Assembly (NCBI RefSeq): GCF_026571515.1
Contig: NW_026864289.1
Coordinates: 124,001-188,000, forward strand
Reading direction: 5' to 3'
Length of the DNA: 64,000 bases
Source of the DNA: Ruditapes philippinarum
Taxonomy: Eukaryota
This document shows, in pieces, positions 15,564 through 60,138 of the stretch. How positions within the stretch are numbered: position 1 is the first letter of the stretch; each line of letters begins with the position of its first letter. Under the pieces are notes generated by a model, which saw only the letters and a program-made list of their open reading frames with translations, searched no databases and was not told the DNA's origin. Made by a program: the position numbers and the translations under genes.

Positions 15564-17599
15564 TTACTCTTGCGGTCGCTCATATAAAACTTGATCTTGT
15601 TGATTGACTTCATCTCTACTCTGTTCATATGAATACTGTAAAGATATAAGTATAAAATAAATATTCAAAATAACCAAGACTTCCGCAATGTTTATAGTCT
15701 TAATTAATCGTTGTTCAAGGTTAGGTAATATTTTATAAAGTATTCGAACCTCGAAACTTTTTGTAAACGAAAACAATGACTTCACGATCTTTCAACCTTA
15801 CAAGATAGTAAAGTACAGGCTACATATATAGGCTAGTTATAGATATTATAACAATATTCATACCTTGGGTTCTGGACAGTTGTTATCCCTACACCACTTG
15901 GTAAACGCTTGTCCAATTTGCTTGAACCGAGGATCAGTGTCTGGGACTTTGCTGTAAATGCGAATAATTTGCTCCGCAAACGTTGCAGGAAGGACAAATG
16001 ATACCTTAAATTATGTTAAAATTTGTTTCATATCATTTTCATATATGTTTTAATTTTAGGATTCAATAGCGGTAACATTTAACACATATTTAAGACAATG
16101 GCAAAGCAATTTAAATGTATAGCAACACGTTAAGTTATGTTATTTCTCAAGTATTTGTTACAATTACTCAGTACAGTTACAATTAGTTGTTATGATAAAA
16201 GTATATTTGCGCTACAATTATGCTACTCGATTAATTTTTCAATTATTTAATAAAACAAACCTGATTTTTTTCTAACGAAATAGCATGATTTATGTCTGCC
16301 TTTCCATAGAAGCGAATTTTTCTCAATGGGTCCTTGCTGTTTTCTCCGTAATGTAGATTCATAAACTAAAATTAAAAACAACAACAACAAACAGCATACA
16401 ATTGGCAAACGTCTTTTTAAAGTGGATTTTATTCGCCTGTGTCATTCACTTATTGCCAGACCTTTGCCATGATATTTGCACACAAACCAATATGCCAATC
16501 GTTCTGTAGCCATTTTAAATCAAGCAGGATGCCCGATTCTTATCGCTATTCAAAGTTAATGTTTTTTTATGAGTTCATTCAATTGGCAATGGAAGGTTCT
16601 AAGTTCAAAGCAGAACAAGTTATAACATATAATTAAGAAGGTAATAACATGTGAAGAGAATCTAAGGAATTCAATACTTACATAGCAGTGAAATAGATCA
16701 ACTTCAACAGGTTCATTCCTGTGCTGAGTCATTATAGTCAGGAGTTGTTCCTTGAAATCTTTTTCATCCACCTTTCCTCTCTAGAAGATAATAATTATCG
16801 TATACATAAGATAATATGTGTTTGTGGAACATGATGAACATGATGAACAAACATTTCCAGAAAAATTGATATTTTGAACTTTAAGAAACGGTCTTATTTT
16901 CTATCTCACACATTCCTAGATGTCTGATATTAATTAAAGTAAAATCAATGCTTCACGTTCAAAAGTTATTTATAAGTCATGGATAAGTATAAAATTACTA
17001 AGTCATGGATAAGTTTAAGGTAATTAGAAGTCAGGGATAATTATAAAGGAACTAGAAGTCATTGATAAGTATAATGGTACAGGAAATTATGGATAAGTAT
17101 AAGGGTATAAGGAAAATGGATGAAAGAAACCTTTTTTAAAAATATATATATATTATACTTGATGACTATATTTTAATTACTCACAGGTAATTATTACAAT
17201 ATCCCATTAACAGTTGCATAGACACATATTTTATTATTTATCATTTTTTATGAGAAACAATAATATATTAAGTGTGTGTCACAATGCAGGTAAGAATAAA
17301 AGTGAATACATTTTAATGCCAGTGTTTCATCAATGAAATGATAAGTATTGTTTCGTATTAGCTGTAATGTAGTTGTGTTCAACCTTTATTCATAGTCATG
17401 TATTAATGTTTATAAATAGTATCTAATTTCACATGATTAACTAACACCCAGAATTTTATAATTATAACAACCAATCACAATGGATATGCTCTGGAAGCTT
17501 TGTTAAGGAGTTGTCTAGAATAAATCATCAGTTCTGAGTTGACCAACATACGCGACACATTGTTCTTCTCATTATTAAACAAGTATTCTCAGGAAAGGT

Positions 17600-17638
<39 letters not shown>

Positions 17639-20600
17639 GCGCACGCGCGCGCGCGCACACACACATGAACATGCACGCGTGCACACACAACGTATTTGCA
17701 TTAGGAAATTAAGAATAGAAGGAGATCATTTGGCTTTCGTACAAACAATGAATGATGCAATAATCACATATGAGAGGTGTTCAACTTATTGTAAAACACT
17801 ATCAAAATACGTTATAAGATCTTTCTTATAGCTTACATAAACTCGCGCAAAGCGATTCATTCATGTAAAATTGAAAATTCAATATGGTTAGAACAAAAAT
17901 ATATGATTTAGTTGAGGGCATTATTTAAAGACGTTTGAAGCAAAAAAATGTCTCACAGAAAGAAACGTTGTGAAACAAGTAAAACAGGTGTGACATAATA
18001 TTTCTGCTGCTACTGTGCATCGCATTCAGCATGGTAAAGGAGCTATTTGAAATAACATACAAGAAAAGGATTGATGCAAAGCATCAAAGAGCGTCCAAGC
18101 AAGAAATGTAGACAGTGAAGATGAACTAGTAGACATATGATGACAAGATATTCTTATAAACTTTTCAATGGTTAATTTGTTTTTACCAGAATCAACGGAC
18201 GAAAGACATTGTTCATTATGAACTTTGATTGGCATGCTAGAGATTATAATATTACTTGTTATTTCTTTATGATCGTGCTTATTAATAGCAACGGATATAC
18301 ATATATACCATCATTTATAATCCATATGTGTAACGCATGATCAACACCACACTTGTGGAATTGTCTCTTATTATGTTATCGCTATTAGAGAAGACCCCCT
18401 CTTTAAGGTATCTGTTCACATTTAGTAAAAATATGACACTGGTTATATTACCATGTTGATCATGTTGAGCATAATTGTTTATTATACAATAATTGTAATA
18501 TCTATTTTAATATAAAAAATACAGATTTTATGAATATTGTTTTCCTCTCTTTTTTGTGTTTTATGTGCTATTTTGATACTGAGTTTTTACGTTTACTACT
18601 CTTTTTTTATCAAAATTGTAAAACAAATTTTAAGAATACAATTGTCATATTGACCGACGAATATAATATTATATGACTTAACTGGAAAAAGTCAGTAAAT
18701 TATGTTTAATCTTTCAATATATAATATTATTTATTCTTAAACAATGTACATGTACATTTGTATTTTTCTTTATCATTTTTTTTAAATTATCAATCAATTG
18801 AATAATTCATAAAATCTAATTTGTAACATAACTGAATATTTCCTCGGCATCTTTACTAAACACGAATAACAAATTAAATAAAATGTTTCAAAGTTGATAG
18901 TGTCATATAAATACCATAAAAATGTACCTTTTTCTCAATTATTGCACATATTTATTGTTTTTATCTCATATAGATAAAATGAAACATGCTATTGTTGTTG
19001 GTTTTTTTTCTTCAAATTGTATGTTTAGGTATAATAATAATCACTAAATTTGAGAGTTGATCTGTGTTTATTAATTATTGTAAACAAACTGAGTGACAAA
19101 CATTCATTTTGGAAAAAAGCTTATTTATCTGTAAAATATTTGTTCTGTTCTGTAACGATATCAAACATCTACTCCAAAACCGGGAGAGACCGTGATACTA
19201 TTCGCCGGTCACTAGTAAATCCCGGTCAAAATAGACCAATTACCGATAGCAGTACATCCCTCTATAAATAGATTTTCGGAATGTTTAGGACACCAACTCA
19301 TCATTCTATTTTAACATACCATAATAACCCACTGTGTACTACAAAATGATAAACAAAAAAAAACCGAAGAGACGGAAAAGGTTTTTTCATGCACTGCGAA
19401 ATTCTCCAGTTCGCTATTCATTGTACATATCGAGACATTTTTTTTAATCAAGCACCCTCATACCGATCGGAATGATCGGCTTTTATTATGACCGACTAAA
19501 AGGCTCGAGAAGTTGCTGTCGCCCATTCACAAAATCTGATTTCATTCCATAAGGGCGCCGCGCTTTATTTTCTGCTGACGTCGTACACAAAATCAGTAAT
19601 ATAATCACGTTGGTGAATCCTCCAACACAAAGAAAAATGGCAGCTTAGTGTTGGGTGTCTCTAAGCACTGTCAACAGAGTTATAGCTGAATTCTAGAAGC
19701 GAAACTGTGCGGTCATAGTCCGTCTGAACTGTGGAAAATGGAAAAACACTGTTTTACATGGGCGGTAGTTACGGTCGACGTCTTGTTTGCTGCGTTCGAA
19801 CTAATGAGACAGACCTGAACTAACCTAAGTTTGAAAAACGAGATGCATTTGCATCTAGGTTAATGGTTTAGGCCGGGCTTGGTTTATGCCGGGGTTAGTT
19901 ACTAAGGCAAGACATCTCTAATTTTTATCAAAAAAAGGGTAGAAGTCAATGCAAAATATTTCACATACAAAGTTCTAAAGTCATTTCTCAAAAAAGATTT
20001 CCCCTGGAAGAGAGAATGACATGGTATTCCATCAAGACTCGGCCTCTAGCCATAACACTAAAATGATCATCAACTTTCTCAACAAACGCAAAATGAATAA
20101 ATAAATGAAAATGAATAACATAACACCTGCAGATGGATGTCAAAAAGCCCAAATGCTCCCATCGACTTGAAAGTAGGTTACAGGAACGCAAGATTTATAT
20201 CATGTCCGGTCTTAAAAAGGCATAAACGGTACTTTAGAAAGCTGGCTTAAAAGGTGTTGAATGATTTACTAATGTCATGGATCGATCATAGATTGAGCAT
20301 CTGTTGCAATAAAACACATGCAAGTAAATAGTGAAGTAGGTTTTAGAACTGTTTCATAATTAAATGAACACCTCTCGTATTTACTGAATCAGCTTGTATA
20401 TTTTAAGATTTCTATGATTGAACAAGATATTTCTACCTTTATCTGAGTTTGGCCAACAAATTTATATAGCTTTCTTTTCAGTATATCAGTCATAACTTTC
20501 TTTGCTTCTTGCAGATCTTTTTTAATCCTCTCTTCTGCACGAATTTCTTCCACCCTGGCTACAACACCATGTTCATCAGCCCACTCAGTCTGGTATGGAC

Positions 20601-23600
20601 TCCTCATTACAAAGCCAGTTGGTGGATATAAAATGAGCAAAATTATATCGTCCGTCAGTTGTGTAAATGCTTCAGGATCATCAACTGTTTCTGAAATTCT
20701 AAGAAGTATAAACAAGATTGTCTTAATATATAGGCATATCAAAAAACCCTACAAACCAACTTACCTGAAGAAATAATGGGCGGTCGTTATAAATTTATAG
20801 AACTCGGTAGCCTGCAACCATTTCGCTCGCTTGAAACAAATGAGCAACCACGTCACGTCATGCCCCTTCACAACTATCTGATTTCATATAATGATGGAAG
20901 TTTACCGATACTTAATTCATAGAACAAACCAGGCTAAAGCACGTTGTCTCATTCTAACGGGCCTCTGTTTTGCAATATACAAAACACGTCGGTGTAAGGA
21001 CTGGCTCTTGTATTGCATTGTCATTAACATTTGATTTGTTCTGTCTATCCATATATTATTAACCTTTAGAAACTTTAAAACAAGCTCGTTATGAAAAAAA
21101 TCAAATAACTTTTTTAAGGTTTTGTATTTTTTGAAATAATTGGGATAGTGTTGTGCGGACGTTATTGCTTAAGGATCTTTAATAGCCGCTTTTAATAATC
21201 TTCAATAAGACATTGAATGCATTAGACCCCAGTTTCCGTTACCAAATATAACCTTAATAAAAAAACACACATGTGACCTCGCTATACTTTACACAATAAT
21301 AAATCGTGTGTAATGGATAACTGTTTTAACAGTATCACTTACCATTGAAAGTTTTGAAATAATAATATGTCAATCTACTTTTCCTATTTATCTGAAATAC
21401 GGCAGTAAATCGACTTTGTTCGCCATAATATGTATAAAACACGTGAACTTTTGGGTTCTATAATCATGCTTCTTTTTTAATTAAAAATAGATCTAATAGA
21501 AAATAAAACAAAATAAACTTACATGTGCTAATTGCTATTTCTTGTTTATTAATAAACTATTAACAACAACGCACTTAATATAGTTATTGAAGATATGCTT
21601 ATATTTTGTTACGTTTTGCATCTACTACAGATGTTATTCTAACATTTAAGATCTAGTAATTTTAATTTTGTTTTGCCTCAAAATGATTCTCATGTTAAAA
21701 ACACATTTTCTACAATGCCATAAAAGACTGGAATTCTTTACCAGACAACATTAGATCAATTGACAATATCCAAACATCTAAAACGAAAGTAAAACTTTTT
21801 TAAGTAATGAAAATGATAAACAAGTGAATGTTATGTTTATTTATTATTAAATTGATGTGTAACTTATGATAAGGTTTTGTAACATGTTTATGTTGTACTT
21901 GATATTTTTTAGTTTAAACGAAATTTATTTCATTTTGTTTGTGTACTTGTCTTATTATATTGAAAAATGTGTCTTGATTGTTGAAAATTGTCATTTATTT
22001 TAACTTCTTTATAATTCATTTATTATTATGTAAGTTAGTGTAATAATTTTACAGTAAATGGACCCAATTGGAAATAAGCTTTTAGCTTAATGGGCAATTC
22101 CTAGGGTAACATAGAACATACTCATTGATTAATCTTATAATTATTTTTGTTGCATTTATGTGTGTGTTTTTATATATACGCAAGTTGATATATGTGATAA
22201 CATTGTATGTGTTTATGTCTATTCCCTGAATAAATCGATACGAACTAACAGATCAAATTTAATTTGCAACAAAGAAAATTTAGATGTTGATATTACTGAC
22301 TGTCACAATTTAGTAGCTACTACAATAAAAATGCAAACAAAATGTCAAACAAAACCGAAATTTGTTGAATTTAGATCATAAAAACGTTTTAATGAATCTG
22401 CTTTCAACACTGAACGATTCATAATGGGCGTTTGAAACACCTTTCAAAGACAAAGAAGTTGTAGATGAACATGCTCAAAAAAGAACATAAATTAAGATCA
22501 CAAGATGGTAAATTGAGAAAATTAATCTATAAAATAAAGCAACTAAGAAATCGCTTTTTCAAAAACCGTAATGACATTATTTGGATTAAGTTCCACAAAC
22601 ACAGACATTTGGTACAATGGCAATATGAATTGATTAAATGTATTATTATCTGAACAGTTGTTTGTTTGTTTTTTGTTTGTTTCTTATTATTAGTTTTATT
22701 ATTTGTTCATGTCGAATACAAGATTAAAGCTTATGTTTTGTAATGCTAACCATAACCACTATAAATAAAGTTTGTCTTACAGATAAGACGTATTAACATT
22801 CTACATATTTTATTAATAGCAAAAATCAAACTGGACAGACTTAGATAGATAGATTTATTTCGGCAAAGGAAGCATATACATAGTTGACAACATAACATAG
22901 GATAAAATAATGAGCATTATTAAATACTATATCACATACGAGAAAACTATGACATGCTCACCAAAACCAAGGATAACACAAAAAAGGGCAAAAAAGCTCT
23001 TATTTCCATTGTGGCCCTTTGTATTGGCGGCATGACATAGAGAGGCAGACCTAAATATAATCATGTTTAAAAATACTAATAAATCATAAAAATGTATATC
23101 ACAGTCAAATCTTGAGTTAATGATACACCTGTTTACAGCTAGAATTTAAAAAACATTACTAAAATTGTAAAAACATAATTAGCAGACAATTTAAAATCCT
23201 GAGCCGAAATATGTAAAAACAAAGTAAAAAAATTAAATACTGTTCATAAGATGACATTTGATGGCAACATTAAAACTTTGTAACCTGTTGATCTCCGTTA
23301 ACTCTACAGGTAAATCATTCAATAATTTAATACCAGAGAAAGCAAAGGATTTAGAACCCTGACCTTTGACCTAAGGTAGACAATACCCACCCTTTTGACT
23401 AAGTCTTGTACTATAAATATGTACGGAATCTTGCGAAATAAAGTGTTCAGACATGTAATCCGGAGACAGGCCATTTTTTTATCTTAAAAACATGACACAA
23501 CATATCTGTTCAACTCTTCTGTGGACCGGTAACCAGTTAAGGGACTTATGGGCTCTGGAATCCAAGTCAAGTACAAATCTTGACAAGTTTGTAACTTATT

Positions 23601-26600
23601 TTTTAAAGACTGTGTCAAGCTATTATACCAAACAGAGCATGCGTAATCATAGTGACACTGAATAAGAGACATAACCAGAAGTTTCTTGGTATGCTAAGAA
23701 CAGACTCGGCAATGGAGCAAAATGACAGATTTTGGTCTATAGTAATCCCAAGATACTTGATAGATGAAGTTGATTCAATGGATATACCAGAACAGGTTAT
23801 ATGCAGGTTAGATTGTGACCTAAGCTTTTGCCTAAACCGAAATAAAATTGACTCGGTTTTACCCAAGTGAAATGACAACTTATTGTCCACTAACCATTGG
23901 CTGACCAATTCCATATCATCTGTCAATGCCTTTTCAACAACAGATAAACACATGACACCAGACACAGACACATTACCAGATACAAGGATACCAGAATCAT
24001 CAGCATACAAAAGCAATTTATTACTGACCACAGCTGACATATCATTTACATAAATTAAAAAGAGAAGGGGTCCAAGGATTGAGCCCTGAGGAACATCACA
24101 TGTTATTTTGGAATTGGAAGAATAAGTACCACAGTACGTACCTAACCTGCAATGAACGATGCACTTTCATAATAATTCACTTACCTTTTGCCATTAAATT
24201 TAATACTTTCGTCTGCCTTTTTCAAAACATCGAGTATCCTGTAAACGAACTGCAGGTTATTGTGTAGAAATTAATGACATGATGCTCAAAACTATATAGA
24301 TGCCAAGAAGTACAAAAGTAGTTCAAAACCGAAAATCTTTCATTTAATCTACATATACTCTTATATAAACCATTCTTTCATTAATTCGGAAACGTATTTA
24401 TACATTTATTTCGTAAATGTAAAATGTAAACAAAAGGAAGGCTTTTAGAACATCATGTGCTCATCTAGAATTTTTTCAAGATAGAGAGGTAAAAACCTTT
24501 CATATCAATGAATTACTTCTATATGTTATATATTTTTATGCATTGAAGCTAATGTTATCAACCAAAATAATAATATTCTTTTAAGAACGACTGTTAAATA
24601 AAGTTTCTTGTATCTTGTTACAGTAATACATACAGTACTTTTACGAAATCCTGAAAAGTGTTTTAAAAATAATGAAATAATTCCGTATATATATGTTTCA
24701 GGGTGAGAAAAATGTGCAGCCTGACCGAGACTAGAACCCGGGCCCTCGGAATAGCGTACTGCGGCTCTAATGACTGAGTTTTCCTGCCGCTTACACACTA
24801 TCTCCACCGTGATATTTTGCGCCCAATGAGGTGTTCGTATCAGTGTTTAATTTACATTTCTCTGTTACCCTGAGAAATTCGAGGACGAATGTCAATTTGC
24901 GGGGGGAGTACGTCAAGGTTCAGAACTCTTCAATATTTAGGGGTGAAGATGTGTAAGCGTCCGGATAGCTCATTTGGTAGAGCGGTATTCCGAGGGCCCT
25001 GGGTCAGAGTCCCTGTAAGGCTGCACAATGTTCTCGCCCTGTGACATATACGTACATCGTTCTTATGACTGTATGTGTTTTATGTTGGTATGCTTGTCTT
25101 GTCAACACCATCTTTGTGTAAAACATATCGTACAGACCCTGTGCTTCCTGAAAAGAAGCAAGTTATTTCTTATCATGTTAATGTCATAATTTATGTTTTT
25201 AAATGATTAAATAGTGGAATGAGAATATAGACGCAACCTCTTGCTGCCGATACATGTAGCACATAGGTGCAACATTTCAGATACAAAAAGGTTCAGCAGA
25301 CATATCTTAGGTTTGCTGTACAGCTGTCTCCTATTATCTGTAACAATGTAACAATTGAGATTTTGCATCTTAAAAAAACTTGTTAATTAACAGTTTTGTA
25401 AATAGTAAAGGCTTTTTAATATTTCATTTGGCTTGTATTACATATATGGTACCAAAAAACAAAACAGGTGCCTCACCTTTTCCCTGTAACATATCTGTTT
25501 TCTTGGTACAATGGGTAAAACTTCACCTCTTTGTGACGCGTTGCTACCTTCACGACTTTCATTGTCTCCAGTTTCGTCATCTCCGTTTAAACCGTTGCTT
25601 ACCAGAACTCGTGCAGTAGCGAAACATCGATTGTAATCAAAATTTGTTTTGACTCCCAGCATGTAGCTATCACGTGCCAGATAGTCCCACTTGTCTACAT
25701 CAATTCCGTTCCTTTTATTGGCAACAATCTACATAGAAATGAATTTTTGCATGTGTATTCTGACATGGTCTAAAATAGCCAAACAAAATGGAACCTTAAA
25801 AGTCGCGCAACGCGACTATAGGTTAAGTGAAGTAAGCTGATTGCCGTATTCAAAACATGCGCATTAAATCGTTAAAGAACAATGATGAAATGCTTTGAAC
25901 GTCAATTAGTCCATACTTGGAAGTGTATGTTATACCAAGCATTATTACGTTGATTGCATTTTGTATTTAGTACATGTTTCATATGTGACAACAGAAAAAT
26001 ATTGTAAAATGGCCAAACGCAAACTTATTGCTGATTGCATATAAATTGAACTGAACTGTTATGTTATTCAATAAATTGTTTCTAAATTATTACACTATGA
26101 ATGTTTTTGCAACTTTATTTATTTCTTGGATTGAATAACGTAATTCATTGATTTCTTGATCTCGATTATAATACTATATACCTCGTACATGTAACTTTTA
26201 CTTTCATCTCTTCCTTTGTGTGGCCAAGGCTGAAATTGAACAATGGCATTTCAGAAATAATATAAGAGTTTTGAACAATTCCTTAAATTAAAAAAAAACA
26301 CAAAAAAAAACAAAAACAACAACAAAAAAAAAAACAACAACAAAACAAAAACCAACAAAAAATTATGATCGTAACTCTGACTGTGTGCCAACACCAAATT
26401 TTTTATGAAATGTGTTGGACAGCTTTTGAAAAGCTTATTAACTAAACAATTAAAGCGAGCAAAAAATAAATACAACACCAACGGAAAAATGTGTTTTGAA
26501 TTTATAGAAGTTTTAATCAGAAAGAAAGTTCAAATTGATATTATAAACATTCAACTGTACGTCCTTTATACCTGTCTCACGATGTCTTTGGGTTGATCAA

Positions 26601-34100: not shown

Positions 34101-34429
34101 TTTTTAATTCATCAGTACTACTGAAAGTTAAATACCTGTTAAAATTTTGTTAGGTGATGTCGCTTTGGTAGTTTAATTCCGTTATTCTGTTTTCATTTAT
34201 TTTTATTTTTCATGTAACAAATGATTATGTATAAATCTCTCTTTGTTAAACTGCATTCTAAATTATGAAATCTCTCATTATAAATATATACATGTTAAAA
34301 TACAATCATGAAACATGATATACTTTACCTTGACTAATACAATAGTGAATGCACAGGTTCGGACGTAGATAATGATTACCTAACATGCATTTGCTGCTAA
34401 TTGAGATTTTGAGATTATTCTACCTACAA

Positions 34430-46734: not shown

Positions 46735-49123
46735 GCTGCGTACAAACATGTGCATCCACTATAATTTTATCAATCAATGCAAAATATATTATGTTTCATG
46801 TATGAATTGAACAAAACTTTATCTTTTACATAAATCTATCGATTTTACTTGATTTGTCGTTATAAAGAGATATTTCAGACTTTAAAGCAGTTTAAAGTTC
46901 TGATAGGATATAACGGAGAGACATTAATACATAGTCAATAAAAATAAATAAAAACCGAATAAAGGAATAAAACTGTCAAAAAGACATCAGCTTACGAAAC
47001 AGGTATTTAAATTTTAATAGTATTGTTGATTTAAAAAACAATTTTGCAATACCAGTATTCAAATATATATCATACTAACCAATTTTGTATAATCTTTTAT
47101 TGTCTATGGAAGCGTATGTTTCATGTATGAATTGAACAAAACTTAATATTAAAACTAGAAATATGTTCATAGGACACGGACGCCCCCACCGCGCCACTGT
47201 TCTGTCAATCTTATGACTCTAGGTCAAATATTTTTTGAAAAATAAAAATCTTTTACTAAGTAAAGGGCAAATATTTACAAATACTGAATTAATCCACGAG
47301 CAAACCCCAGCGTATGCGAAAATAACAGACTCCAAACAAGATCGCTGGTTGAAATGTAAAACATCTCACTCAAGCACGCAACATTGAATATGATATGATA
47401 ATATAAGTCAATTTTTTATCAGACACGTACGATTATTTTATGATATAATTATCACTAAATTCATTCCCAAATGACATAATTTATATAGTTTCGTACAAAT
47501 CGTAAAAATGAAATCTTCACCCATTTCTGTATCAGAGCCTCAATCATTTCCTTTAGTGTCACGTTTGTATTGCCTTCGGCATGAGTCTATTCAACTATTC
47601 CACCGATGTTATTTAAACAGAAAGTTAATGTAACTTATAAGCTATGATCTTACATTAAATATATGCAATAAAACTAAGCCTAGACATTGTACTCTGGCCA
47701 TTAGAAATCAATATGTATTGCCATTTTGAACAGTTAAGGCAAACACATATGGTATTGTTGGACTGTTGTTGTAGTTTCTTCGTCATGCATATAGTTTTAT
47801 TTAAGAGTAAAAAGTGCATAAAATTGCAAACATGGAATGTTTTTCAATACCATATTTTTTTCAAATAAATATCGCAAGGTATCTATTTACCCTGCCTATT
47901 TTTCTTATATTATAACAAATTAAATTATTAAAAGCAAAACTAGAATTTAACTTCTATTGTGTTTTAGTGATCTAAAATAAAACATAAAATAAAACGTATT
48001 AAAGACCCATTATGTCCCGATATACTTTTATATTAATTTTTCAAAAGATTTTTATAACGGATTTTCCATTATAGTTTCCAACAAGTTACTCACTGGCCAA
48101 TAACTTGAATAATCTGTTCCTTCTCTTACTGTTTGGCAATTAGAACAGTTATACTGATTTAGTATTTGGTATGGAAGTAAAAATACTACTTTGTTAAAAT
48201 TTTGCTACTTTTTTACAAGTTTTTTCTCACATTCAGCACTATTTCCTTCAGGTGGTAAGAGTCAAACAAGTTGTTAATCCAAGGCATTATGTGCCTTTAA
48301 TGTTTATGTTATTTCATATCATTACAGAATTTTTACAAAACTCAAAACTTAATGTTTACAAATACATGCATGTCAAAAATTAAAAAAAAAATATCTGTGG
48401 ATTACTGTCAGTTGTAGCTATAAAGAATGATTGAAAAAATAACAATAGCATCGACAAGTATACCGGGTAATCATGTAGCTACGTACAATTATGTGCACCC
48501 ACCATTGTATTAGTCAATGCAAAATATATCATGCTTTATGTTTGTATTTGAACAAAATTTTATCTATAATATAAACACATCGGTTTGTTCTTTATTTGTA
48601 ATTATAGTGAGAGATTTACATACTTTAGAGTACATGTAGTTTAAAGTTCTGATAGGATATAACGAAAAGAGATTGATTAATACATAGTCAATAATAATAA
48701 TAAATGAAAACAGAATAAAGTAATAAAACTACCAAAAAGTCAGCAAACGAAATATGAACAGGTATTTAACTTTTAATAGTATTGATGATTTAAAAAACAA
48801 GCTTTGTAATACCGGTATTCTTATAGATATCATACTTATAAATGTTGCATAACCTTTTATTGCTAATGGAAGCGTATGCAAAAGTAGGTAAAAGACACCA
48901 AATAAGATATCTGGTTGAAATGTAAAGCATCTCACTCAAGAACGCAACATTGAATATGATATGATACTATAAGTCAATTTCGATTATTTTATGATAATAA
49001 TTACCACTTAATTCATTTTAAAATTACAATATTAATACTTTCTTCAGGTAGTAAGAATATAACAAGTTCTTAAACCAATGCATCATTTGCCCTTAATGTT
49101 TATGTTATTTCCTATAATTACAG
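46735..49123 (+). repeat. Local tandem duplication of the ~650-bp segment preceding the first coding exon of SAMHD1-B
   Basis: 46735-47480 aligns to 48478-49020 (e.g. gtttaaagttctgataggatataacg; tggttgaaatgtaaa.catctcactcaag.acgcaacattgaatatgatatgata), and 48245-48327 aligns to 49041-49123. The first copy is interrupted by insertions. Confidence 0.85.
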
Positions 49124-49131
49124 ATAAAACT

Positions 49132-52100
49132 ATGGCAGATGAAGGAGGTGAAACAGGTTCGTCCAATGGTGAACAGCAACATCAAACTGATTCGGCAAAT
49201 AACATATTCATGAAGAGAAAGGTACATTAGCGATTGGATAACTTGCACAAAAATATTGCTGAAGGTGTCGCAATTATTTTTCATTTATACAATGCGCTGT
49301 ATATAGAATGCTGGAAATGTGAACAAGTCTTTGGGGGCGGCGTAAGGGGTGTTGAATTTTGTCATTAAACATTATGTACAGACTCAATCGAACAGAGTCT
49401 TCAATTTTCATGTAATTTTGCTGATAAACTTCCGAGCGATTACTTTTTTTTCCAGATATTTATTTTGATGCAAAGTAGCCGCACATGTTTTTATAATAAA
49501 CTTCTAACTGAAGGAAAGAAATTTAACAATCTAATCCAACAAGCATGCGTAAATATTATTTCAGACAATCTTTAAATTAGTACCAATGAACACTTCTGTA
49601 ATGGTTTTCGTCCAAAAAGATCGATTCATATGTTACTTTCTCAGTGGATGTGTAATGTATGTCTTAACGTTTGCTGGTGCTATTTAAAGCCCCACAAATT
49701 TCACGCTGTGTCGATTCAATTAAATACTGGAAGGTGTTTTATAAATCCTAGTGTATGATTGCTGGGAGAAAATATATGCTATCTTATTGATATAATGCTC
49801 ATTTATAAGCGAATTTCTTATGGTTTTCTATTCATATTCGTAAATAAGGTAATTTTAAATATCTTAAGTGATAGGCACACCATCAATTACTTTCGGTTCC
49901 TTTTTCTTTAATGCTTGATAAGGTCTACAACTAGTGTCTACGAATTTTCGGAGAAAATATTAATTCACCAATTTTCTGTGCGTACTCTATTTATAACGGT
50001 AAACATATTAGCAACCTGAATGCATTTTTTGTTTTCAAGTCAATGGCAATAAGTCAATGCCAGCCAATTCCCAAACATTAGTTTAGAAGATGCAATTTAT
50101 AGTTTATTCAAAAATAATAAAAAGGATTGCTGTTCCTAAAGCGGTTACGCAAAATTTTGACAAAAATTAGATCAGATACAATAAAAGGATGCAAACTTAT
50201 TTTTCTTTCGCTAGATATTCAACGATCCAATTCATGGGACAATGGAAATACACCCTGTTTGCGTCCGCATAATGGATACGCCTCAGTTTCAGCGGCTGAG
50301 ACACATCAAACAGCTAGACGCATGCTACATGGTATATCCTGGAGCAAGTCATAATAGGTTTGAACACTCTATAGGGTAAGTATATTTTCGGAAGGATTTT
50401 TAGACTGATACATACATGTATAATGTTAAATATAATCGTTTACCAGTGAACGTAATCACAAAATAATACCACTTTTGAAAATAAAATTAATAAAAGTCAA
50501 AAGAACCTTTAGATGTTAAGTCTTATCCTGTACATTCAATGACAGTCTTCACAGCCCGCATATATATTACAATTATTTTGATTGTTTAAAGTATGAAGAA
50601 GCACGTGATCTGTAAAAACCGTACATGATTGGTAAATCAAAGTTGTATAGTAATTTTATTGATAAAAACATGGTAGTTTCAAATTGGTATATTAAGGGAG
50701 TCACATATAGATGATAGAGACTACCTTCGGCTATTGATCGATTATTGTAAACTATATTCTTAATATAGATGTTTTAGAACAATTTTGAAATAAAATAAAT
50801 AAATGGAACTGTGTTGAATAAAAAGTTAAAATAAAATAAAAGACAAATTTGAAATTGCGTGCAATTCTGGATTACCTGCCTTTTGTATACAAAATGATCC
50901 CCACATACATGAATTATATATCTGTTTAAATTATCAAAGCTTTTCTCCACATGAAACCTTTTAAACATGTTATAATGTTTAACAAGTAAAGAAATTAAAA
51001 TACCTCGTTAAAAATTTGAAGTATATAAAATATTCCATTAATTTCTATAACTATGGATAAAATCGTGTTTCAGGGTAAGTTATCTGGCAGGGAAACTTTT
51101 AAAAACTATCAAAGAACAGCAACCAGAAGAAAACATTTCAGAGAGGGACATTCTGTGTGTGGAAATAGCAGGACTTTGTCATGATCTAGGTAGGTCTTCT
51201 TTTCGTTTATACGTTGTAAATAAGCTTTTGTAACATCAAAGTATACTTTAAATTGCCCTTCTCTCATTTGATACTACAAAAACGAGCGAATATTCTCCAG
51301 GTTTTTTTACTGTTTTGTTGTTTGTTTTTTTACTTCTGTTTAACAACTTGAATAGGACACTATTGACAATCATTGTGATGTGAAATGACTGTGCTATATA
51401 AGTGAACCTTTCCAAAGTCATTATCGTAATAGGTCGTTAATATAACTTTTCAATATAGCTTTATACTGTTGCTCATTTAAACATTTTGAATTTATATAAG
51501 ATTAAGCAAGAAATGCAAGTATTCCATGTATTTCCTTAATATACTGTTTTATTTGCATACAGGCCAAGGACCGTTCTCGCATGTATTTGAAAAAAGGTTT
51601 ATGCCTTCGGTAGAAAAGGAGTTTAAGGTAATAAACTGTTGTAAAGATGGATTCCACTTACAACAGCTTACATAATCATTACATAATGTTGTATAATATT
51701 ACTTAAAAAGTATAACATGTATAATTTTAAAGAATATTTTTAAGAAATATTAAAGACTTTAACTTAGATTTAAGTTTATTTTAAAGTTTAATTATAATAA
51801 ACATGTATTGTTTCATAGACACTTTATTCTTATTATTTATTAGTTTAATGTTAATTATAGTTTGTAGAACTTATTGATACATTCTTTAACAGTAACTTAG
51901 CATGGCCTAAGACTCTTTACATAAAATATACATAGAATGTTTCTACTTTTACTTATACTGGACTTTAAACTTAGTAAAATACATATTGTTAATTTAGCAT
52001 TTGCATAATTTATATATGTTTGTAAATATGTTTAGTTGATTATAGTTACTAGTATTATTGTTACAAATATTTTGCAAAATTTTATTATTTTTATAATTAT

Positions 52101-55100
52101 GGTTAATTGATACTGTTGCAAAATTTTCCATGAATCATTATTTATTTTTAGAATAGTTATGTAAAGCCCCAATAAGCTCTGATTGGCTAAAATTCATTGA
52201 CCAATCAGAGCAGGTCTGCATTTTACTGGTTCCACACAAAGTTCTGGTTCCCAGTAGTGTGCATAAATATAGGCACTTTACACAAATTTGTCATTAGAGG
52301 GCCTCCGGGGCCGAGTGGTTAAGGTCGCTGACTTGAGATCACTGGTCCCTCACCGCTGTAGGTTCGATCTTCACTTGGGTCGAAATCTTTCATGTGAGGA
52401 ACCATCCAGCTGGCTTACGGAAGGTCGGTGGTTCTACCCGGGTGCCCGCTCGTGTCTGAAATAATGCCCGGAGGGGCAACTGGGGTCTTTCCACCAAAAT
52501 AAGCTGGGAAAAAATCGACGAAAAAATCTCGGCGGGACACTCTAGGATGGTCCGACTTGAGTGTACGGTCGCCCATATGGATTTTCCGGCGGCTACCTTA
52601 ATAAAACGCATTAAAAATAATAATTATAATAAAAATTGACATTCTGCTGCTATTTTTTTGGAAATGTAACATCTCTTAAAGCTCTCTAAGGTTAATTAAT
52701 TAATTATTTAATTTATTTTAGGCACTTTGGCATTTAAATAAATCTTAAAAATTATCTAAATTCTCTAAAATATTTTAATTAATTTGTAAGTAATTTTTGT
52801 AAGTTCTTTTCACAAAATTAATTAAAATTAATTAATATCTTTTCTTTGTTTAAGTGGCAGCCATCTGAAATTATTAAATCTTTATTTTTGTTAATACATA
52901 TTAAAACAAGGCTTGCTACTATTCAACAGCACAAAATCATTACGGTTACTTTTCATATTTCATTTATAACAGTTTAAACAACTTTCAACTGGTTTAAATC
53001 TTTTATTTACTAGTTAATTTTAATCATCATATTTTTGGTTAATTACAAACAGTTCATATTAAAGTACATTTTTTCAACTTGTTTTGTTTTAAGTAACTTT
53101 TAGTTAAGTGTAAATAAAAACTAAGTTCATTAAAAATTTGGTTAATTTAAATTTATTCAAATTTGTGTTTTATTTCCCTTTGCATTCAAAGGGTGGTGTC
53201 ATACTAACAATTAAATTTATCCCATTAAAAAGTACTCCTAAGCAAACTAAAAACATTAGGTAATAAGTAACTAATTCTATTTATAAAAAAACATAAGGCT
53301 TTTAATTTTCAACACCACAACAATGGTGCCAAGTGGGATAAATGCCTGCTTCCATTTTTAGAAACACTTATTAACAATATTTTTAATCACCACAACAAAA
53401 CCATAATCATATCTGATATGCTCATTATTGTTATGTGGAAGAATACTGTTTTCTTCAATAGCTACTATTTGATGTGTGTTTTAATTGCTATATTTTCGTA
53501 ATATTATTTTAATTTAAGCATTTGGTCTTAAAAATTAAAAAGTCATGAATGTAAATAATTATCATAATACGAGATAAAATCCCCAAAATATCCCCAAGCA
53601 TCAAGTAACAAACAGAAAAAAAATATGTTCCATTTAACAGCATCAAGCCATGGCAAGAAAAATGTTTGATGATATGTTGGAGAGTACCGTACTTAAAGAG
53701 GATATTCAGAGGATTTTAGGAGAATGTAACATACAAGGCTTAAGAGAGTTCACAGAAGATGATTTTACATTTATCAAAGAAATGATCGATGTACCCAGAC
53801 AATTGGAGCAACAAGGCGTATATAAATTCTGTTCTTTGAAATTCATGCTTATTCCTGTTAAGATCTATTGAACAAAAACACCATGAAGATGCTTGAATAT
53901 TTCGGTTAAATATATGAAACGCATCTTAAATTTGTATTTGTACTCGTCTCTATGTTTGCAAATAAAGTTCTTATTTAGAAAATATCTGAGAATGAGTACT
54001 ATTTTTATTGTGGTTTCATGGAACTCTTTCACGATTGTGTGAATAATATATAATCTTATGTTGCATAATGATTTATAACAGCTTCAAAATTAATAACATA
54101 TGTCAGCTTTTGCTGTTCATGTTATTTTAAAGAAAATATGTTTCAGTCGTGGCCATACAAGGGTAGAGAGGAAAACAAAAGCTATATGTATGAGGTAATG
54201 TATATCTTTTCATATATATGGGATGATATGTGATTTTAATATTTTGTTATTGTTAATGTTACTGGCGGACACATAGTTATGCAATAGCTATAAACAATCA
54301 ATGTCTAAACCCTAAGACCAAATCAAATGATTCAGAATATATAAAGTTTTGTATTTTATCAGAACCAATGGTTATCGACCACAAATAGAATAAGCATCTA
54401 AAGTATTGTCCCCATAGTAAAATCCAAATGGATATGTCATTACATTGAAATTTATTTGTAAAAAAGACTCGGATTGTCAGGGAATTGAAATATAAATGGG
54501 GGAAATGTAACAGCCGATTTACTATAGAAAATGATTATATTTCACAATATCTATATTTGTATTTTTGCATCATTTTAAATGACTTATTAAAGGAAGACCA
54601 TTAATAAAAAGCAGAAATGAAATTGTTTTGAATTATTAGATTGTAGCTAACGGAAGAAACGGAATTGATGTAGATAGGTGGGACTATCTAGCACGTGATA
54701 GCTACATGTTGGGACTAAAGATAAATTTCGACTACAATAGATGTTTCGCTACTGCACGGGTTTTGAAATGCGACGGTTTAGAGAGGAAACAAATATGTTA
54801 CAGGGAAAAGGTGATAATTTTGTTTTGTTTGTACTTAATTAGCGCAAAAACAGCAACTGATGATAAGTCCTTAGATTCAATCGCCTAAACTTATGATAAA
54901 TGAAAAATAAGAAAAAGATTTGTTAAAGGAAAAGGGTTAATATTGTGTGATTGCATTGTAAGCCGAGATAAATTGAATTGATAAGTAAATAAATATATAC
55001 TCTCTAAAATTTGTTATGTTTAACACTAATAAGATCACAGTGATACAGATTACTTATAGATTTCGCGAGTGTAGAACAAAAGTCTTCTGATACACATACA

Positions 55101-58100
55101 TTCAAGTCAAGATGATGAAATGGACAAACTCTCTCATCATCAACAAATAAAATGCCTTCTGGATAAAAAGCAATCTTATGAAATTTTTATTTTACTCATG
55201 TTTATCAGAAAGCATTTATTATGTGTCTCAACAGGTCACGTAATTGTTTCTTTCTTGAACGGTCAATAAGCAAACAATGACAGATAATGATAAGGATGTA
55301 TATGTTTTTTACATAGCAAACTTAATTTTATCTTTGAAGGAAGCACATGGTTTGATCAGCATGTTTTACACCAGGATGACTCTATACAGACAGGCATATC
55401 AACATAAGACACACTCTGCTATCGGCATGATGTTCGTATACATGATTACATATGTTAAAACACTGAAAGACATTTCTATAGCATTACCTGCCTTTTTTAT
55501 GTTCTTTGGATATAAGGGTTATCTTTATACATGTTATTCCACATGTTGAACTGCTCATCTGTCATGGATAAATGATATTAGAAAATGATAAAACCATTTT
55601 TAGCGTAAGAATGAATTCTTGAAAAGTGTTACATTAGAAGTGTGTTTCAGTTAATGTGTTTAACATGATTTAATGTAACTTCTCAAATTCAAGTGAACTA
55701 CAAAATCTATAACATAAGATATTTACTGGTTTTTTGCTTTATACATTTAAGTCAAGGAAAGGTAAATGTCTACTTTAGCAATATATATCATTTTCATGTC
55801 TACCTTTTTTGAAGAATTGCTACACAAAGTTCATCTATTTGTTGTATTCATGTTAGTTTTTTTCCTTTTCTTCCCCTATAAAATATACGACAATTATCTT
55901 ATGATTGAAGATATAAAAACAAAACGATTTTGTTGCGCTAAATAAAAATGAATTATTTAAGACATCGGGGTAGAAATTAATAACATATAGATGTAATGAA
56001 AATGTTAATACTTCATGAATTTGTGGAAGGAAAATAACCACAAAATATTCAATCAATGCATAATAGTGTCCCTATTTATACAGCTATGGTGTAAACATCG
56101 TTATGTTAAGCGAGATTTGCGAAGTCAGTGTTATAAATTAGTAATATAAGTCAAAATTACATTTAATTTTCAGGATTATATAATGCAAAATTGCATTTAA
56201 TTTTTAGGATTTATGACGCCCTTAAGGATGCAAATGACAAAATTGAAATTGCTGGAAAGAGGTAAAATATAAAGTTTAAGGATATATTTAATGAAAGATT
56301 ACAAGATTCTACTGATTTTCAATTTTGACGGAATCACGAACAAATTTAGAATTCGAATATCTGTGATATACTTTGTTCCCAAAAGACTAGCAAAGACAGT
56401 TTAGTGATACAATATCAAGATATGGTACATTTTTGACAAATTTCATACGAACAAAAACATCGATATTTAGCTAACTAGTATAAATCTTCACTCTAATTTA
56501 GAACATAGTGAATGTAGCGAATTTGTAGCATTTCAGATGCAGTTGACGACACGAAAGCGTTTACACTTTTGACAGATGACATGATCCTTACCATTTTAAA
56601 TCCTCTATTAAGTGTTACACCATTCAAAAAGCCTGGAAGCGGGGATCCTACTAAGGCTAAGAAAATACTCGACAACATTTACAAGAGGAATCTTTACAAG
56701 TTTGTTACAGAATTGCACATTCCGGTAAACAACGTAGTTATCAATATTTTTTATCCTAGTTTATTAATTAAAGAAATATAGTTTATTCTGAAAGCCTACT
56801 CTCTATTATGCATAAATAGATTTAAATTTGTATTTAAGAAAATTATCTGAAGAAAATAAAATGCATGATTTTATATATAATGCTTAATCATCATTAAAGT
56901 TGTGTCTAAAATAATCATCTTTGACAATGAACAATTGTCAATCTTATTCATTATTTATTTTAATTAAGACGTTAAGATGTATAATTTTTATTCATTATTT
57001 AGACAAAGAAGTATGATTTAAACAAGGTTAAGAAACGCATAGACAAGTTTCTACGACCAGATAATGACTCTGTTAAAGACCTGATAGAATATGATGTGAG
57101 TGAAACCTTCATTACTCAAAAATTTTTTATAAACAAAATCTTGTTTGGTCGACATCATCAAAGCGTACGTGACAATATGCCCATTTAAATTAAAATGGTG
57201 AATGACCACGTAAAACTTAAAATAACTTCATGTAATAACTTCATGTTTGGTCTTTATTGTCTTCAGTTATATATCTTAATTTATATAAATATCGTTCAGA
57301 ATGCAGTGGTAGCGTTTGATTTTTATAAAGAGTGGGAAAACCTTTTTCTTATTTTCTATCCTAAACATTTATCATTAAAATCTTGATCAGGATTATAAAA
57401 AACAATCTTTTAAAATAATAACTCAAAGTTATTTCTTCCGCTAAACTGGACAGCAAAAATATGAGCATAATGACACTATGGCTGTGCTTGGAAAAGAAAT
57501 CGCATTAACTGAATAGAGAGAAATAAAGAATCCCTAAAGACGCTCAAATCGACAAAATTGAAAATGTTGCAGGCTCGGTTTGATTGAGCCTGTTTATGGA
57601 CGGTAATGGAAAGTGCAAGTTACCGCCAACCTAGCACCTGCTTAAGCAGTATTCAACATTTAACACGTATTGGTATAATTTGGAAATTTGAAACATCCTC
57701 AGAAGCCTTTACTGAATAAAGTGATACATGAATATAATTTCATTAAAAAGGTACATCTTTTAGGCAGGCTTTCAGCCGTAAAATGTTTATATTCTTTGTT
57801 GCTTTGGTGATTTTATTCGTGTTAATTCATTATAAATGATTTAATAAGCTTTAAATTGACGAAAACCTTACTTGGCTCTGCAAGATATCTTTATAATGTC
57901 TTTTGTGCTTTTGAATAGCTGTAACAATTGCTCCCAATTTCATTTTAATAGTGTTAGATATTTCTTCCCCTACGGGAACATTTATTATCTAAAATTGAAT
58001 ACTGCTAAAGCGCTGATGTTTGAAGTTTTGAATGATGTTGCAATTGTTCATAGTAAACAACCGCAATCGGACCGAGTATGCAACATTCGTGTATTGTATG

Positions 58101-60138
58101 GCATTTTTTCATTGATTTCGGCAAATATTCAACAACAAAATTGTGCACTTTTGTGAATAATTGAAGGTTGTAAGATTAGACTACGGAATGAAAGAGCAGG
58201 ATCCTTTGGAAAAAATACAATTTTACACTAAGGATGAGCCGAATAAAGGAATACAGTTTGAGCGGAAACAAGTATGTACTCAATTCAATCATTCATATTC
58301 TTATGCTGCATCGACAGAAGAATGGACTTGTAGAATTCTTATTTTTTAAGAAACGAGGCAAATAATAAACTCAAGTACACAAAAATAACATTTCTTTCTG
58401 AGTGATTACTTATAAATGACTCATTATAAGTGTAAATAACTGACTGATTTTGATAAAAAAATATATTAATTTCAATTTGAATGTCCAAGTAGTTTTCTAA
58501 CAATAAACATATAGAGAAATTTATAACCTTATCCTGCTGGTGATGACGCAACCAGTGCAGACCAAGATTAGCTGACATACACGTGCTGTCTGATCATTGT
58601 CTGCACTGGTCGCCATTCAGTCAGTCTTATTTTTAAATTTTGCCTAAAATTGATGAACAGATAGAAAGATGGACAAGTCCATTTTAAGTGTTAAGCGTGT
58701 TGAAGGTTAAACGATGTTGGTATAAAATTGTTTGACGCCGCTTTCGTTCGTCTATTCAGCAATGAGGGAGATTTTAGTCTTGCTCTTGTGCATTTTTTTA
58801 ACAAAATCACAATGTTTTCGAAATTTATTTTTTTAATAAAAATAGCTTTTACAACATGTCACCCACCGAGCTTTAAGGAATTTAAATAAACGTTTAACTG
58901 AAGTGATAGTGCCATGTTTGAATATCATATTCTTTTTTTATTATCTAATTTTATTTACCTATTGAATACCGTGTCAATGAGTTATTCTATATTCTAATAA
59001 CGGGAACAAAATTTGGACAGGGACTGAAATATGCAACGGAGATTTTTTGGCGCTACGGTTGCAAGGGAAATACTTTTTGCAAAACAGGCAAAATGTTTGC
59101 TTATTCATGAAAAAGAATTAACATTTAATTTTTAAACAGATTAACTGAGTGACAAAATAAGTTTGTTTTAAAATGTATCACACATATTTGCAAAAGGTTA
59201 TTTGGAAGGATTCTGTGACGAATGTTCTCTTTTGCCTAGATTTTTTATTACATTTAACGGTTCTAAATTTAAAGCAAATATGCAATCTTGTGTTTACTCA
59301 AGTAGTTTAATCTTTTATAAATAAGTAAACAATACGTAACAAAGAATTGATTATATTTTACAATTTATTCTTAATTATTATTTAATGTTACAGACATAAA
59401 AAATAGTCAATCATTGGGTAAGATAGAGGACAATGGAAATCCCAACCTTCTGGCAATCGGTTCCATGGAGAACTCGCCAAGGCTCGTTCCCGATTGAACA
59501 GATCACCCTCGGGTTGGGATTCCCTTGTCCTTTATCTAACCCAATGATAGATTCTATTAATCTCTATCTATGTCTTGAATTTATTTTAAGTTTACAAATC
59601 ATTTAATTTTTACTTCTTATTCAATTTATTTTGCTTCCACCAGACCTTTCAATCTTTGTCGCAACAGACGAACATTACAGAATTTCAGACATGACATTAC
59701 TTTGTGAATTTATGCAATAGGTTCTACTTTTTCACAAAAATATGCAACTTAATTATTAAACAACAAGCACATACCATGAATATGAAGAAAATTGATTAGT
59801 GCTTCGGATAATCAATTGTTATAATGAACAATAGTCAGGGCTGATTTTGCACATTACCAATTACTGGCATCTTTGATATGCAGCATCAACATTTAACTTG
59901 TTTTCCCTTGTCATATGTCCACTTTTAATGCGAACTGTATAATATTTCGTTATCACATGCAATGCTGTTTATTTTATATATTTAGGTATCTTACCTCTTA
60001 CCCAAGACATTCGAGGAAGTTATCGTCCGTTTCTACTGTAAACCAAGGACGGAAGAAAATCAGATAGATGAACCGGCTCAAAGCGATAAAACAAAAATCC
60101 GGAAAGCAGTTATAAAATATCAAAATAAGTATTTATGA
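49132..60138 (+). CDS. SAMHD1: SAMHD1-like HD-domain dNTP triphosphohydrolase paralog B (no SAM domain), ~506 aa, 13 coding exons
   Basis: Exons 49132-49221, 50215-50375, 51074-51189, 51563-51627, 53641-53817, 54147-54194, 54640-54810, 55340-55431, 56208-56261, 56529-56724, 57003-57095, 58167-58271 and 59986-60138. All introns are GT-AG; 1521 nt, open. Intron positions match paralog A (identical 161, 116, 65, 48, 92, 54 and 105 nt exons). Motifs [82 protein letters not shown] and [11 protein letters not shown]. Confidence 0.93.
52297..52610 (+). mobile_element. tRNA-derived SINE, near full length
   Basis: Head gggcctccggggccgagtggttaaggtcgctgact...ggttcgatc (A and B boxes); body ccatccagctggcttacggaaggtcggtggttctacccgggtgcccgctcgtg..tgaaataatgcccggaggggc; at least four other copies in the window. 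Confidence 0.85.
58524..58710. mobile_element. Short MITE-like element
   Basis: taaccttatcctgct ... agcgtgttgaaggtta termini with an internal inverted pair accagtgcagac / gtctgcactggt. Confidence 0.5.
59402..59558. mobile_element. Palindromic MITE-like element
   Basis: atcattgggtaagatagaggacaatggaaatcccaacc ... ggttgggattcccttgtcctttatctaacccaatgat; centre gaacTCgccAAggcTCgttc. Confidence 0.75.

Follow-up and report, generated by a model that had tools for sequence, protein, structure and literature searches.

Putatively inactive and putatively active SAMHD1 paralogues, divergently arranged within a large gene family of the clam Ruditapes philippinarum

SAMHD1 has been studied as a single-copy gene whose product is a homotetramer, and the catalytically dead forms of the enzyme are laboratory mutants; in the human protein, the substitution R366A lowers activity about 300-fold. 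As described in the available portions of PMC7311409 and PMC11074143, human H215A-SAMHD1 is inactive, yet it binds substrate and tetramerises; the general-acid histidine is called universally conserved in the accessible text of PMC9257424, according to which bacterial dGTPases carry Asn at position 210, Asn at 234 and Glu or Asp at 218. For the deoxyhypusine synthase of trypanosomatids, a heterotetramer has been described in which a catalytically dead paralogue serves as a subunit (excerpts of PMC3663545); no paper on a SAMHD1 heterotetramer was found among the literature matches listed.

In the window, that is, the whole stretch of 64,000 nucleotides analysed (positions 124,001 to 188,000 of contig NW_026864289.1), two SAMHD1 paralogues, A and B, diverge from each other (Table 1). 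As proposed in the sequence-only reading of this DNA, both are complete spliced ORFs, with GT-AG introns throughout and one terminal stop each; the divergent spacer, put there at about 19 kb, separates ATGs lying 18.9 kb apart, and the common intron positions are borne out by the phases, all 12 introns of B matching those of A, which has one additional terminal exon. The first coding exon of A is followed by 13 further coding exons (29403-15564, minus strand), that of B, which runs from the ATG at 49132 to 49221, by 12 exons (50215-60138, plus strand). The product of A is identical to P0204 (XP_060566045.1, an NCBI venerid-clam protein), and its AF2 model (pLDDT 84, pTM 0.86) has the SAMHD1 fold, matching SAMHD1 crystal chains with a TM-score of 0.86-0.91 on target length (Foldseek E 1e-36 to 1e-38, probability 1.00); the A-type protein P0024 matches SAMHD1 chains with phmmer E values of 1e-104 to 1e-110. 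B was assigned to the SAMHD1 catalytic core by alignment, and no retrieved protein is more than 65% identical to it. The description of the pair as SAM-less also holds: Pfam recognises only HD in P0204, and no tblastn match to a SAM or HEPN exon at E<1e-3 is present in the A-B spacer, which rules out a hidden exon of either kind and places A and B outside the canonical SAM-bearing orthologue class.

Table 1. Features of the two genes and of their 5' regions (positions in the window)
Feature	Position	Strand	Remarks
Gene A, SAM-less SAMHD1 paralogue	15564..30253	-	14 coding exons, 570 aa; spliced ORF, NCBI protein identity
A exon with N358G, R366K, H370T, R372Q	25056..25147	-	Y374, Q375, H376, K377 retained
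A exon with H210R, H215Y, D218E	27147..27211	-	GRGPFSY replacing GHGPFSH; same residues in P0024, P0204, P0206
A first coding exon	30253-30188	-	22 aa; last residue equivalent to K116
A-side shared 5' block	33976..34422	-	donor (~34.14 kb) homologous to B 5'-UTR donor; putative use by A transcripts
B-side 5' block, including B 5'-UTR exon	46676..47466	+	donor ~47.0 kb spliced to ~49.12 kb; X2 joint 46999-49120
Second tandem 5' block copy	48336..49037	+	within B first intron; missing at the equivalent place in sister gene C
Gene B, SAM-less SAMHD1 paralogue	49132..60138	+	13 coding exons, 507 aa; spliced ORF, contig joints
B exon with H210Q, H215 intact, D218E	51563..51627	+	GQGPFSH

The suggestion that further canonical copies may exist elsewhere is answered by the genome, which holds at least 33 SAMHD1 exon-2 copies (33 full-length, stop-free matches among 36 candidates scored), one of them SAM-bearing and canonical; this sole copy of its kind (G000:C12383:522156, minus strand), with SAM exons upstream, is sister to Mercenaria P0046 (support 100/99). 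The IQ-TREE phylogeny (38 rows and 448 columns, comprising 19 of the 33 genome copies and 19 outside proteins) was computed under LG+G4 without a mixture model and is thus more prone to long-branch pull; a FastTree tree left out one truncated copy (C3527). A and B form a single clade with two downstream copies, C and D (96/89), and the sister of all four is Mercenaria P0033 (100/99), the one Mercenaria protein grouping with A-D among the best 120 of 778 and the best 120 of 2135 search matches sampled, which counts against conservation of the linkage. The sister of B is C (100/100), a clade of A and B is rejected (p-AU 0.00017), and A has the longest end branch (0.51) of the venerid copies in the H210Q clade, which among the aligned proteins occurs only in venerids or unlabelled records. 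Many SAM-less SAMHD1-like copies, some with H215 replaced, are likewise annotated by NCBI in Mercenaria, Dreissena, Mya and cyprinid and percid fishes; elsewhere, H215-substituted SAMHD1-like proteins account for 6 non-A motifs of 195. Some paralogues elsewhere begin with a HEPN-like region. The literature searched describes neither a SAMHD1 expansion in clams or other bivalves nor a HEPN-SAMHD1 fusion, and the roughly 30-member family is apparently undescribed there, although the expansion could be recorded in supplementary gene-family tables of papers on clam genomes.

With human SAMHD1 (PDB 4ZWG, 6TXC, 7UJN), A and B share the fold, about 40% identity, the metal ligands, both allosteric sites and the deoxyribose gate, whereas they differ in the absence of SAM, in belonging to a family of at least 33 members where human has a single gene, and in G151D, H210Q/R, D218E, N358G and R372Q. 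Every residue previously listed as kept or lost was confirmed in both proteins by alignment: the metal ligands H167, H206, D207, D311 and H233 are kept, as are K116, N119, D137, Q142, R145, R333, R352, K354, H376, K377, R451, K455 and K523 of the allosteric sites, while G151D, N358G and R372Q are common to A and B and both have lost H210 and H370. The clade with a new substrate surmised from these shared losses does not follow, the substitutions being inherited clade characters: H210Q is found in 17 of 30 genome copies, and G151D, N358G and R372Q also in Mercenaria P0033. Co-evolved A-B substitutions are ruled out by the occurrence of the same changes in P0033 and in other paralogues. H210Q as a mark of death or of a new substrate is excluded by its frequency and by the Asn of active bacterial enzymes; indeed, the combination H210Q/D218E is similar to the Asn/Glu found at these positions in active bacterial dGTPases (PMC9257424, accessible text) and is therefore not evidence of a new substrate.

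The asymmetry between A and B, which the sequence-only reading did not remark on, is, as far as aligned residues tell, catalytic, in that only A lacks H215 and R366, and B has both. The pocket of A is changed by H210R, H215Y, E234R, R366K and H370T, with R164, Q149, L150, K312, Y315, D319, Y374 and Q375 retained; H215 is absent from A alone among the 30 genome copies with that exon recovered, and each of the three full-length A-type proteins (P0204, P0024, P0206) has H215Y and R366K. B carries H210Q, D218E, E234Q, K312R, H370Y and D361S and retains H215, R164, R366, Y315, Y374 and Q375, along with the glutamate E218. Like the engineered H215A protein (PDB 6XU1, 7A5Y), A has lost the general acid with the metal centre and allosteric sites intact; unlike it, A occurs naturally and is expressed, and it combines a tyrosine at 215 with four more pocket changes; its behaviour is predicted only. 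B, with Q210/Q234/E218, recalls the bacterial dGTPases (E. coli Dgt, L. blandensis dGTPase), in which, to go by the excerpts cited, amides occupy 210 and 234, Glu is allowed at 218 and the His acid is intact, whereas their oligomer and allostery are different, Asn stands where B has Gln, and no descent is implied. The dimer-1 surface is almost identical among A, B and D; the dimer-2 helix (N358, D361, H364, S368, R371, as listed in the available portion of PMC11074143, several of these positions varying in other paralogues as well) reads G, D, Y, V, R in A and G, S, Y, T, R in B, so that these proteins may stop at dimers.

Both genes are transcribed: the bulk contig sets X1 and X2 each contain A words and B joints, RNA-derived contigs from X1, X2 or both contain joints for 11 of the 12 introns of B, and full-length ORFs of A occur on two Logan contigs. 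In the raw-read runs X21 and X23, covered to 4-6% of each, exon-bin depth over B is about 2 or less, and none of the joints listed belongs to B. The Logan proteins P0024 and P0206 form gap-free alignments with A that span 548 aa, with 94-96% identity; A-type proteins show 28-36 mutual differences over 570-612 residues, a spread that may reflect relaxed or diversifying selection, with haplotype differences concentrated in two surface segments, and A has two private insertions. Branch dN/dS, estimated over 385 codons, is 0.20 for A (bootstrap 0.11-0.38), 0.26 for B (0.12-0.82) and 0.12 for D (0.05-0.26), values which are rough because dS for A-B, A-D and B-D is 1.2-1.6, near saturation, and saturated for A-B in the C-terminal half. 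Neither A nor B is near 1, and both are under purifying selection, with the interval for B reaching 0.82; the frame of A has stayed open across 14 exons despite a dS of about 0.9 on its branch.

In a dedicated head-to-head gene pair, the two starts share one bidirectional promoter and are separated by no more than about 1 kb, a spacing that A and B exceed. The distance between their 5'-UTR exons is about 12.5-13 kb (B at ~46.9-47.0 kb from a contig joint, A at ~34.1-34.3 kb by homology only), and a single bidirectional promoter is ruled out by this distance of ~12.5 kb. The two genes are flanked by a homologous 5' block, 67-79% identical between the A-side block and the B-side copies, in inverted orientation, and split on the B side by a dispersed repeat (~47140-47310); given this common block, co-regulation of A and B is possible. 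No such block was found upstream of C (23 kb) or D (16 kb). In a first DNA search, in which 40 of 1483 candidates were scored, matches to the dispersed repeat predominated; a genome-wide search without the repeat, in which all three candidates were scored, placed the block only beside A and B, and, as common words were skipped, its rarity is not proven. Head-to-head SAMHD1 pairs also occur on contigs C2950 and C11601, and the 14 same-contig neighbour pairs comprise 9 tandem, 3 head-to-head and 2 tail-to-tail. The head-to-head arrangement by itself is ordinary, and in A and B it is very probably a by-product of local duplication; a local duplication together with an inversion would have produced the divergent layout and left B with a copy of the 5' block of A. 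Linkage within a rapidly turning-over family, which the sequence-only reading had named as evidence against its own proposal, is largely what the genome shows, with at least 33 copies and 3 of 14 pairs head-to-head.

The explanation preferred here, with a probability of roughly 0.43, is that A is a likely dead subunit co-assembling with close paralogues and B a likely active dNTP triphosphohydrolase, within a large, locally duplicating family. Its parts are not equally firm: A is predicted with good confidence to be dead as a dNTPase; B is rather likely to be active, K312R, H370Y, H210Q and E234Q being of uncertain effect; and co-assembly of A with its clade-mates in vivo is predicted at slightly less than even odds. 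Though catalytically dead, A would still bind GTP/dNTP, would mix with B, C or D, and not with B alone, via the conserved allosteric/dimer-1 surface, and in mixed assemblies would damp or tune the activity of its paralogues, the family serving, on this proposal, antiviral dNTP depletion. The trypanosomatid pair is obligate and experimentally shown (PMC3663545, excerpts), whereas the pairing of A is predicted, with at least three candidate partners. What survives of the earlier proposal of a regulatory or decoy subunit plus an active one is that A looks non-catalytic; the dedicated pair is not supported, given at least 33 copies, C as the sister of B and the rejected A+B clade.

The same tree weighs against the improbable view that the two genes co-evolved as a dedicated two-component module, forming an obligate A2B2 heterotetramer and kept head-to-head. 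The adjacency of a dead-looking and a live-looking copy, the inverted homologous 5' block present in both and missing from C and D, the occurrence of both genes in runs X1 and X2 and their common N358G and R372Q would fit such a module, but a single Mercenaria protein, already with G151D, N358G and R372Q, stands for A-D, and the layout recurs on other contigs, with no single promoter between the 5' exons. A wider scheme is quite unlikely: in venerid clams, single-copy SAMHD1 would have become a modular immune toolkit for sensing nucleotides, with about 30 genes that include active copies having a bacterial-type pocket, HEPN-fused copies acting as nucleotide-gated RNases, and a naturally dead subunit, A, which would set the activity of B in mixed tetramers and have a duplicated promoter block in common with it.

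The remaining alternatives concern A itself. It might be a stand-alone non-enzyme that does not mix with B, either a homo-oligomeric binder of nucleotides or nucleic acids or a decoy for a viral SAMHD1 antagonist; its long end branch, private insertions and variable surface segments, its intact fold and allosteric sites and the recurrence of H215-substituted proteins are consistent with this, but no antagonist from clam viruses was found in the literature searched, and the dimer-1 surface, which hardly differs among A, B and D, would make mixing hard to avoid if the proteins are co-expressed, so that this reading is unlikely. To the same degree unlikely is an enzyme with altered substrate or chemistry, which would use its pocket (Arg210/Tyr215/Arg234/Lys366/Thr370) on a different phosphorylated nucleotide: a tyrosine at 215 beside an intact metal centre could permit other chemistry, the five metal ligands and eight further residues listed above are kept, and five pocket changes fell on one branch under overall purifying selection. 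However, bacterial and human enzymes alike conserve the general-acid histidine, without which turnover is abolished; metal ligands can be retained for the sake of the fold and of binding nucleotides, H215A being an example; and the unchanged deoxyribose gate (L150, Y374) argues against a switch to ribonucleotides. Finally, lost catalytic residues, a long branch and variable haplotypes might suggest an early-stage pseudogene drifting since duplication, which the open frame, the upper bound of 0.38 on dN/dS and the full-length ORFs on Logan contigs render very improbable.

In the preferred reading of A as a dead subunit among active relatives, a natural, retained and expressed H215-less copy beside predicted-active paralogues makes the tuning of SAMHD1 by mixed tetramers testable. 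With about 30 copies, the family provides candidate antiviral genes in a farmed clam; in oysters, transcripts of SAMHD1-like genes are responsive to OsHV-1 or serve as markers of resistant families.

Genes A and B, whose exon series were found by six-frame reading and by comparing A with B, were modelled from exon coordinates as two intact spliced reading frames, with GT-AG introns throughout, matching phases and a single terminal stop apiece; their ATGs lie 18.9 kb apart, in agreement with the ~19-kb spacer of the sequence-only reading. The A protein is identical to XP_060566045.1 (P0204; NCBI name SAMHD1-like, Ruditapes philippinarum), and two Logan proteins of 612 aa (P0024 and P0206, contigs of 2.8–2.9 kb) match it without gaps over 548 residues at 94–96%; we take them to come from spliced transcripts, either of alleles of A or of a very close copy. 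Their N-terminus is 42 aa longer and includes a start segment in repeat, an extension absent from the genome copy (window 30188–30253); haplotype differences in A are concentrated in two segments. No protein more than 65% identical to B occurs among those retrieved; its transcription, proposed earlier as a check, is seen in two RNA-derived contig sets (X1 and X2), where, among the joints listed, 11 of the 12 introns appear as joints in one or both (two with a few differing letters at the joint); the remaining intron, the seventh, appears in a variant contig only. In these contigs a 5'-UTR exon ending at ~47.0 kb is spliced to 49.12 kb; coverage of B is very low in two raw-read runs.

Features of the window and long paralogues elsewhere in the genome
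Feature	Position	Strand	Description
SLC52 riboflavin transporter gene	6889–8768	plus	PF06237, E 5e-144
Tc1/mariner-type transposase ORF	9812–10849	plus	intact, 345 aa; Pfam HTH_Tnp_Tc3_2 + DDE_3
Gene A	30253–15564	minus	14 coding exons, 570 aa
Retroelement remnants	23615–24166; 34492–35781; 38523–38819	minus; plus; plus	
5' block, A side	34.0–34.4 kb	minus	67–79% identity to both B-side copies
5' block, B side	46.7–47.5 kb	plus	contains B 5'-UTR exon
5' block, second B-side copy	48.3–49.0 kb		homologous to A-side block
Gene B	49132–60138	plus	13 coding exons, 507 aa
Long HEPN-like paralogue	L094, G000:C13651 upstream of 20458	plus	
Long HEPN-like paralogue	L095, G000:C7986 upstream of 71045	plus	

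Fold, metal ligands and allosteric sites place both proteins in the SAMHD1 family, and neither is the SAM-bearing orthologue; with numbering transferred from human SAMHD1 through the full-length chain 7ujn_A and human-chain alignments, all residue states reported earlier for A and B hold. Tyr replaces H215 in A alone (1 of 30 copies), and Lys replaces R366 in A alone among copies with that exon recovered, two losses with which A does not qualify as an active dNTPase; its pocket also carries H210R, E234R and H370T. According to excerpts of the human studies (PMC7311409, PMC11074143), H215 is the general acid, H215A abolishes detectable turnover while substrate binding and tetramerisation are retained, and R366A lowers kcat ~300-fold. 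B retains H215, E218, R164, R366, Y315, Y374 and Q375, and its Q210/Q234/E218 state resembles that of the L. blandensis dGTPase, for which excerpts of one paper (PMC9257424) give Asn at the H210 and E234 positions, a universally conserved histidine and Glu or Asp as its partner; K312R and H370Y of B recur in long paralogues of both clam species. From these residues we expect an active enzyme in B and a protein without dNTPase activity in A.

That A is simply drifting is very improbable: its branch dN/dS is 0.20 (0.11–0.38; Nei-Gojobori counts, 385 codons, dS near saturation), and its predicted structure is a confident SAMHD1 core (pLDDT 84, pTM 0.86), so A is not decaying. H215 is replaced in six non-A motifs of the 195 found in 211 retrieved proteins; dead-looking copies thus recur in expanded families. 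A long-clade copy with open exons, C7986:107796 (plus; L063–L064), has its metal centre destroyed (H206Q, D311G, K312I, Y315S, H370F), a second paralogue dead in another way than A. In a subclade (C13623:173848, C3378:57048, C3378:25772, C3527:1480) the GTP allosteric site is altered (N119Q, D137N, Q142H); PDB titles show D137N of the human enzyme as an established specificity mutant that has been combined with XTP, so these copies may respond to another activator.

Exon 2 of A has 33 full-length, stop-free matches (36 candidates scored) on 18 contigs of the 1.41-Gb genome, a lower bound which yet likely includes haplotype duplicates (C8053/C15858 and C2950/C7231 are near-identical), and we therefore estimate ~25–30 SAMHD1 loci; 31 other copies were read by exon-wise profiles. 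Among 14 same-contig neighbour pairs nine are tandem, two tail-to-tail and three head-to-head (A/B, C2950 and C11601, the latter two of which may be one locus). The canonical copy anticipated elsewhere in the genome is C12383:522156 (minus), with every catalytic residue kept, SAM exons upstream and, in the IQ-TREE tree, SAM-bearing Mercenaria P0046 as sister. Among the matches listed, several SAM-less or double-HD SAMHD1-like proteins also come from Dreissena, from Mya and from cyprinid, percid and goby fishes; crystallin (PF00030) or kinase domains are attached to some of them.

Two further copies, C and D, lie ~100 and ~130 kb downstream on the window's contig. In the same tree A–D form one clade (96/89), B joining C (100/100; dS 0.26), then D and finally A, with a single Mercenaria protein, P0033, as sister (100/99; best 120 hits per protein search), so that, within those hit lists, the four copies are likely products of local duplication postdating the separation from Mercenaria. 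The substitutions previously read as a joint remodelling of the pair are older: H210Q occurs in 17 of 30 copies with the exon recovered, always with D218E; of 33 copies, 12 have G151D and 3 have G151E; and G151D, N358G and R372Q already stand together in P0033. In C (G000:C12776:275829, plus; L041–L042) ~12 single-base deletions crowd the R366–K377 exon, the others being intact; the NCBI model (P0031) omits this exon, but a variant contig of set X2 joins into it, which favours an error of the assembly over true pseudogene status.

A dedicated A2B2 module, as the sequence-only reading proposed, has its best point in the 5' block common to both genes, from which co-regulation is possible. The block, a putative 5' element of A, matches here only genome-wide (3/3 candidates scored), with its donor site conserved in all three copies. 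The 23 kb preceding C and the 16 kb preceding D lack it, and B therefore resembles a C-type coding region with an A-type 5' block in front. One bidirectional promoter is ruled out, the two promoter-like copies lying ~12.5 kb apart; a forced A+B clade is rejected (p-AU 0.00017), B's sister being C, and such a module is thus improbable. SLC52 lies tail-to-tail with A; the remnants include an RT fragment inside an A intron (Pfam RVT_1) and a weak match to zf-RVT. A disrupted LINE-like segment without Pfam match, RNase H-like in appearance, directly adjoins A's 5' block.

We tentatively favour, at a probability of about 0.43, a reading in which B would deplete dNTPs as a GTP/dNTP-activated, SAMHD1-like oligomer, and A, its allosteric and dimer-1 surfaces intact, would bind nucleotides and co-assemble with its nearest paralogues, whose output it would dampen or shift; dimer-2 helix residues are altered in the alignment, and tetramer assembly is only putative. 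That A instead acts as a stand-alone binder or decoy is unlikely, as is, equally, an enzyme with changed chemistry. An antiviral role of the family would follow by analogy with human SAMHD1 and oyster data, in which SAMHD1-like transcripts are reported as markers of a delayed response to OsHV-1 (bioRxiv 10.64898/2026.05.15.723513) and as over-represented in one resistant family (PMC6971885). A clam study reports that a SAMHD1-like gene, which may be any of the copies, rises after peroxide priming (PMC13266081).

Both clam species also hold a clade of ~850-aa paralogues (P0052, P0058, P0036, P0047, P0034, P0040) whose 370-aa N-terminal part holds a DZIP3-like HEPN domain instead of SAM; the PF18738 match is below the curated cut-off in five of the six, and the Atlas feature score of 0.87 is a lead only. 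The four sequences inspected show an R-x4-H stretch like the HEPN RNase motif. The long paralogues are candidate nucleotide-gated RNases, arguably more novel than the A/B pair. The listings and abstract openings searched in the openly accessible literature describe no expansion of SAMHD1 in bivalves, no naturally dead subunit of SAMHD1 and no HEPN-SAMHD1 fusion; the value of the finding is that A is likely a pseudo-enzyme and that the ~30 SAMHD1 genes around it form a family that is apparently undescribed.
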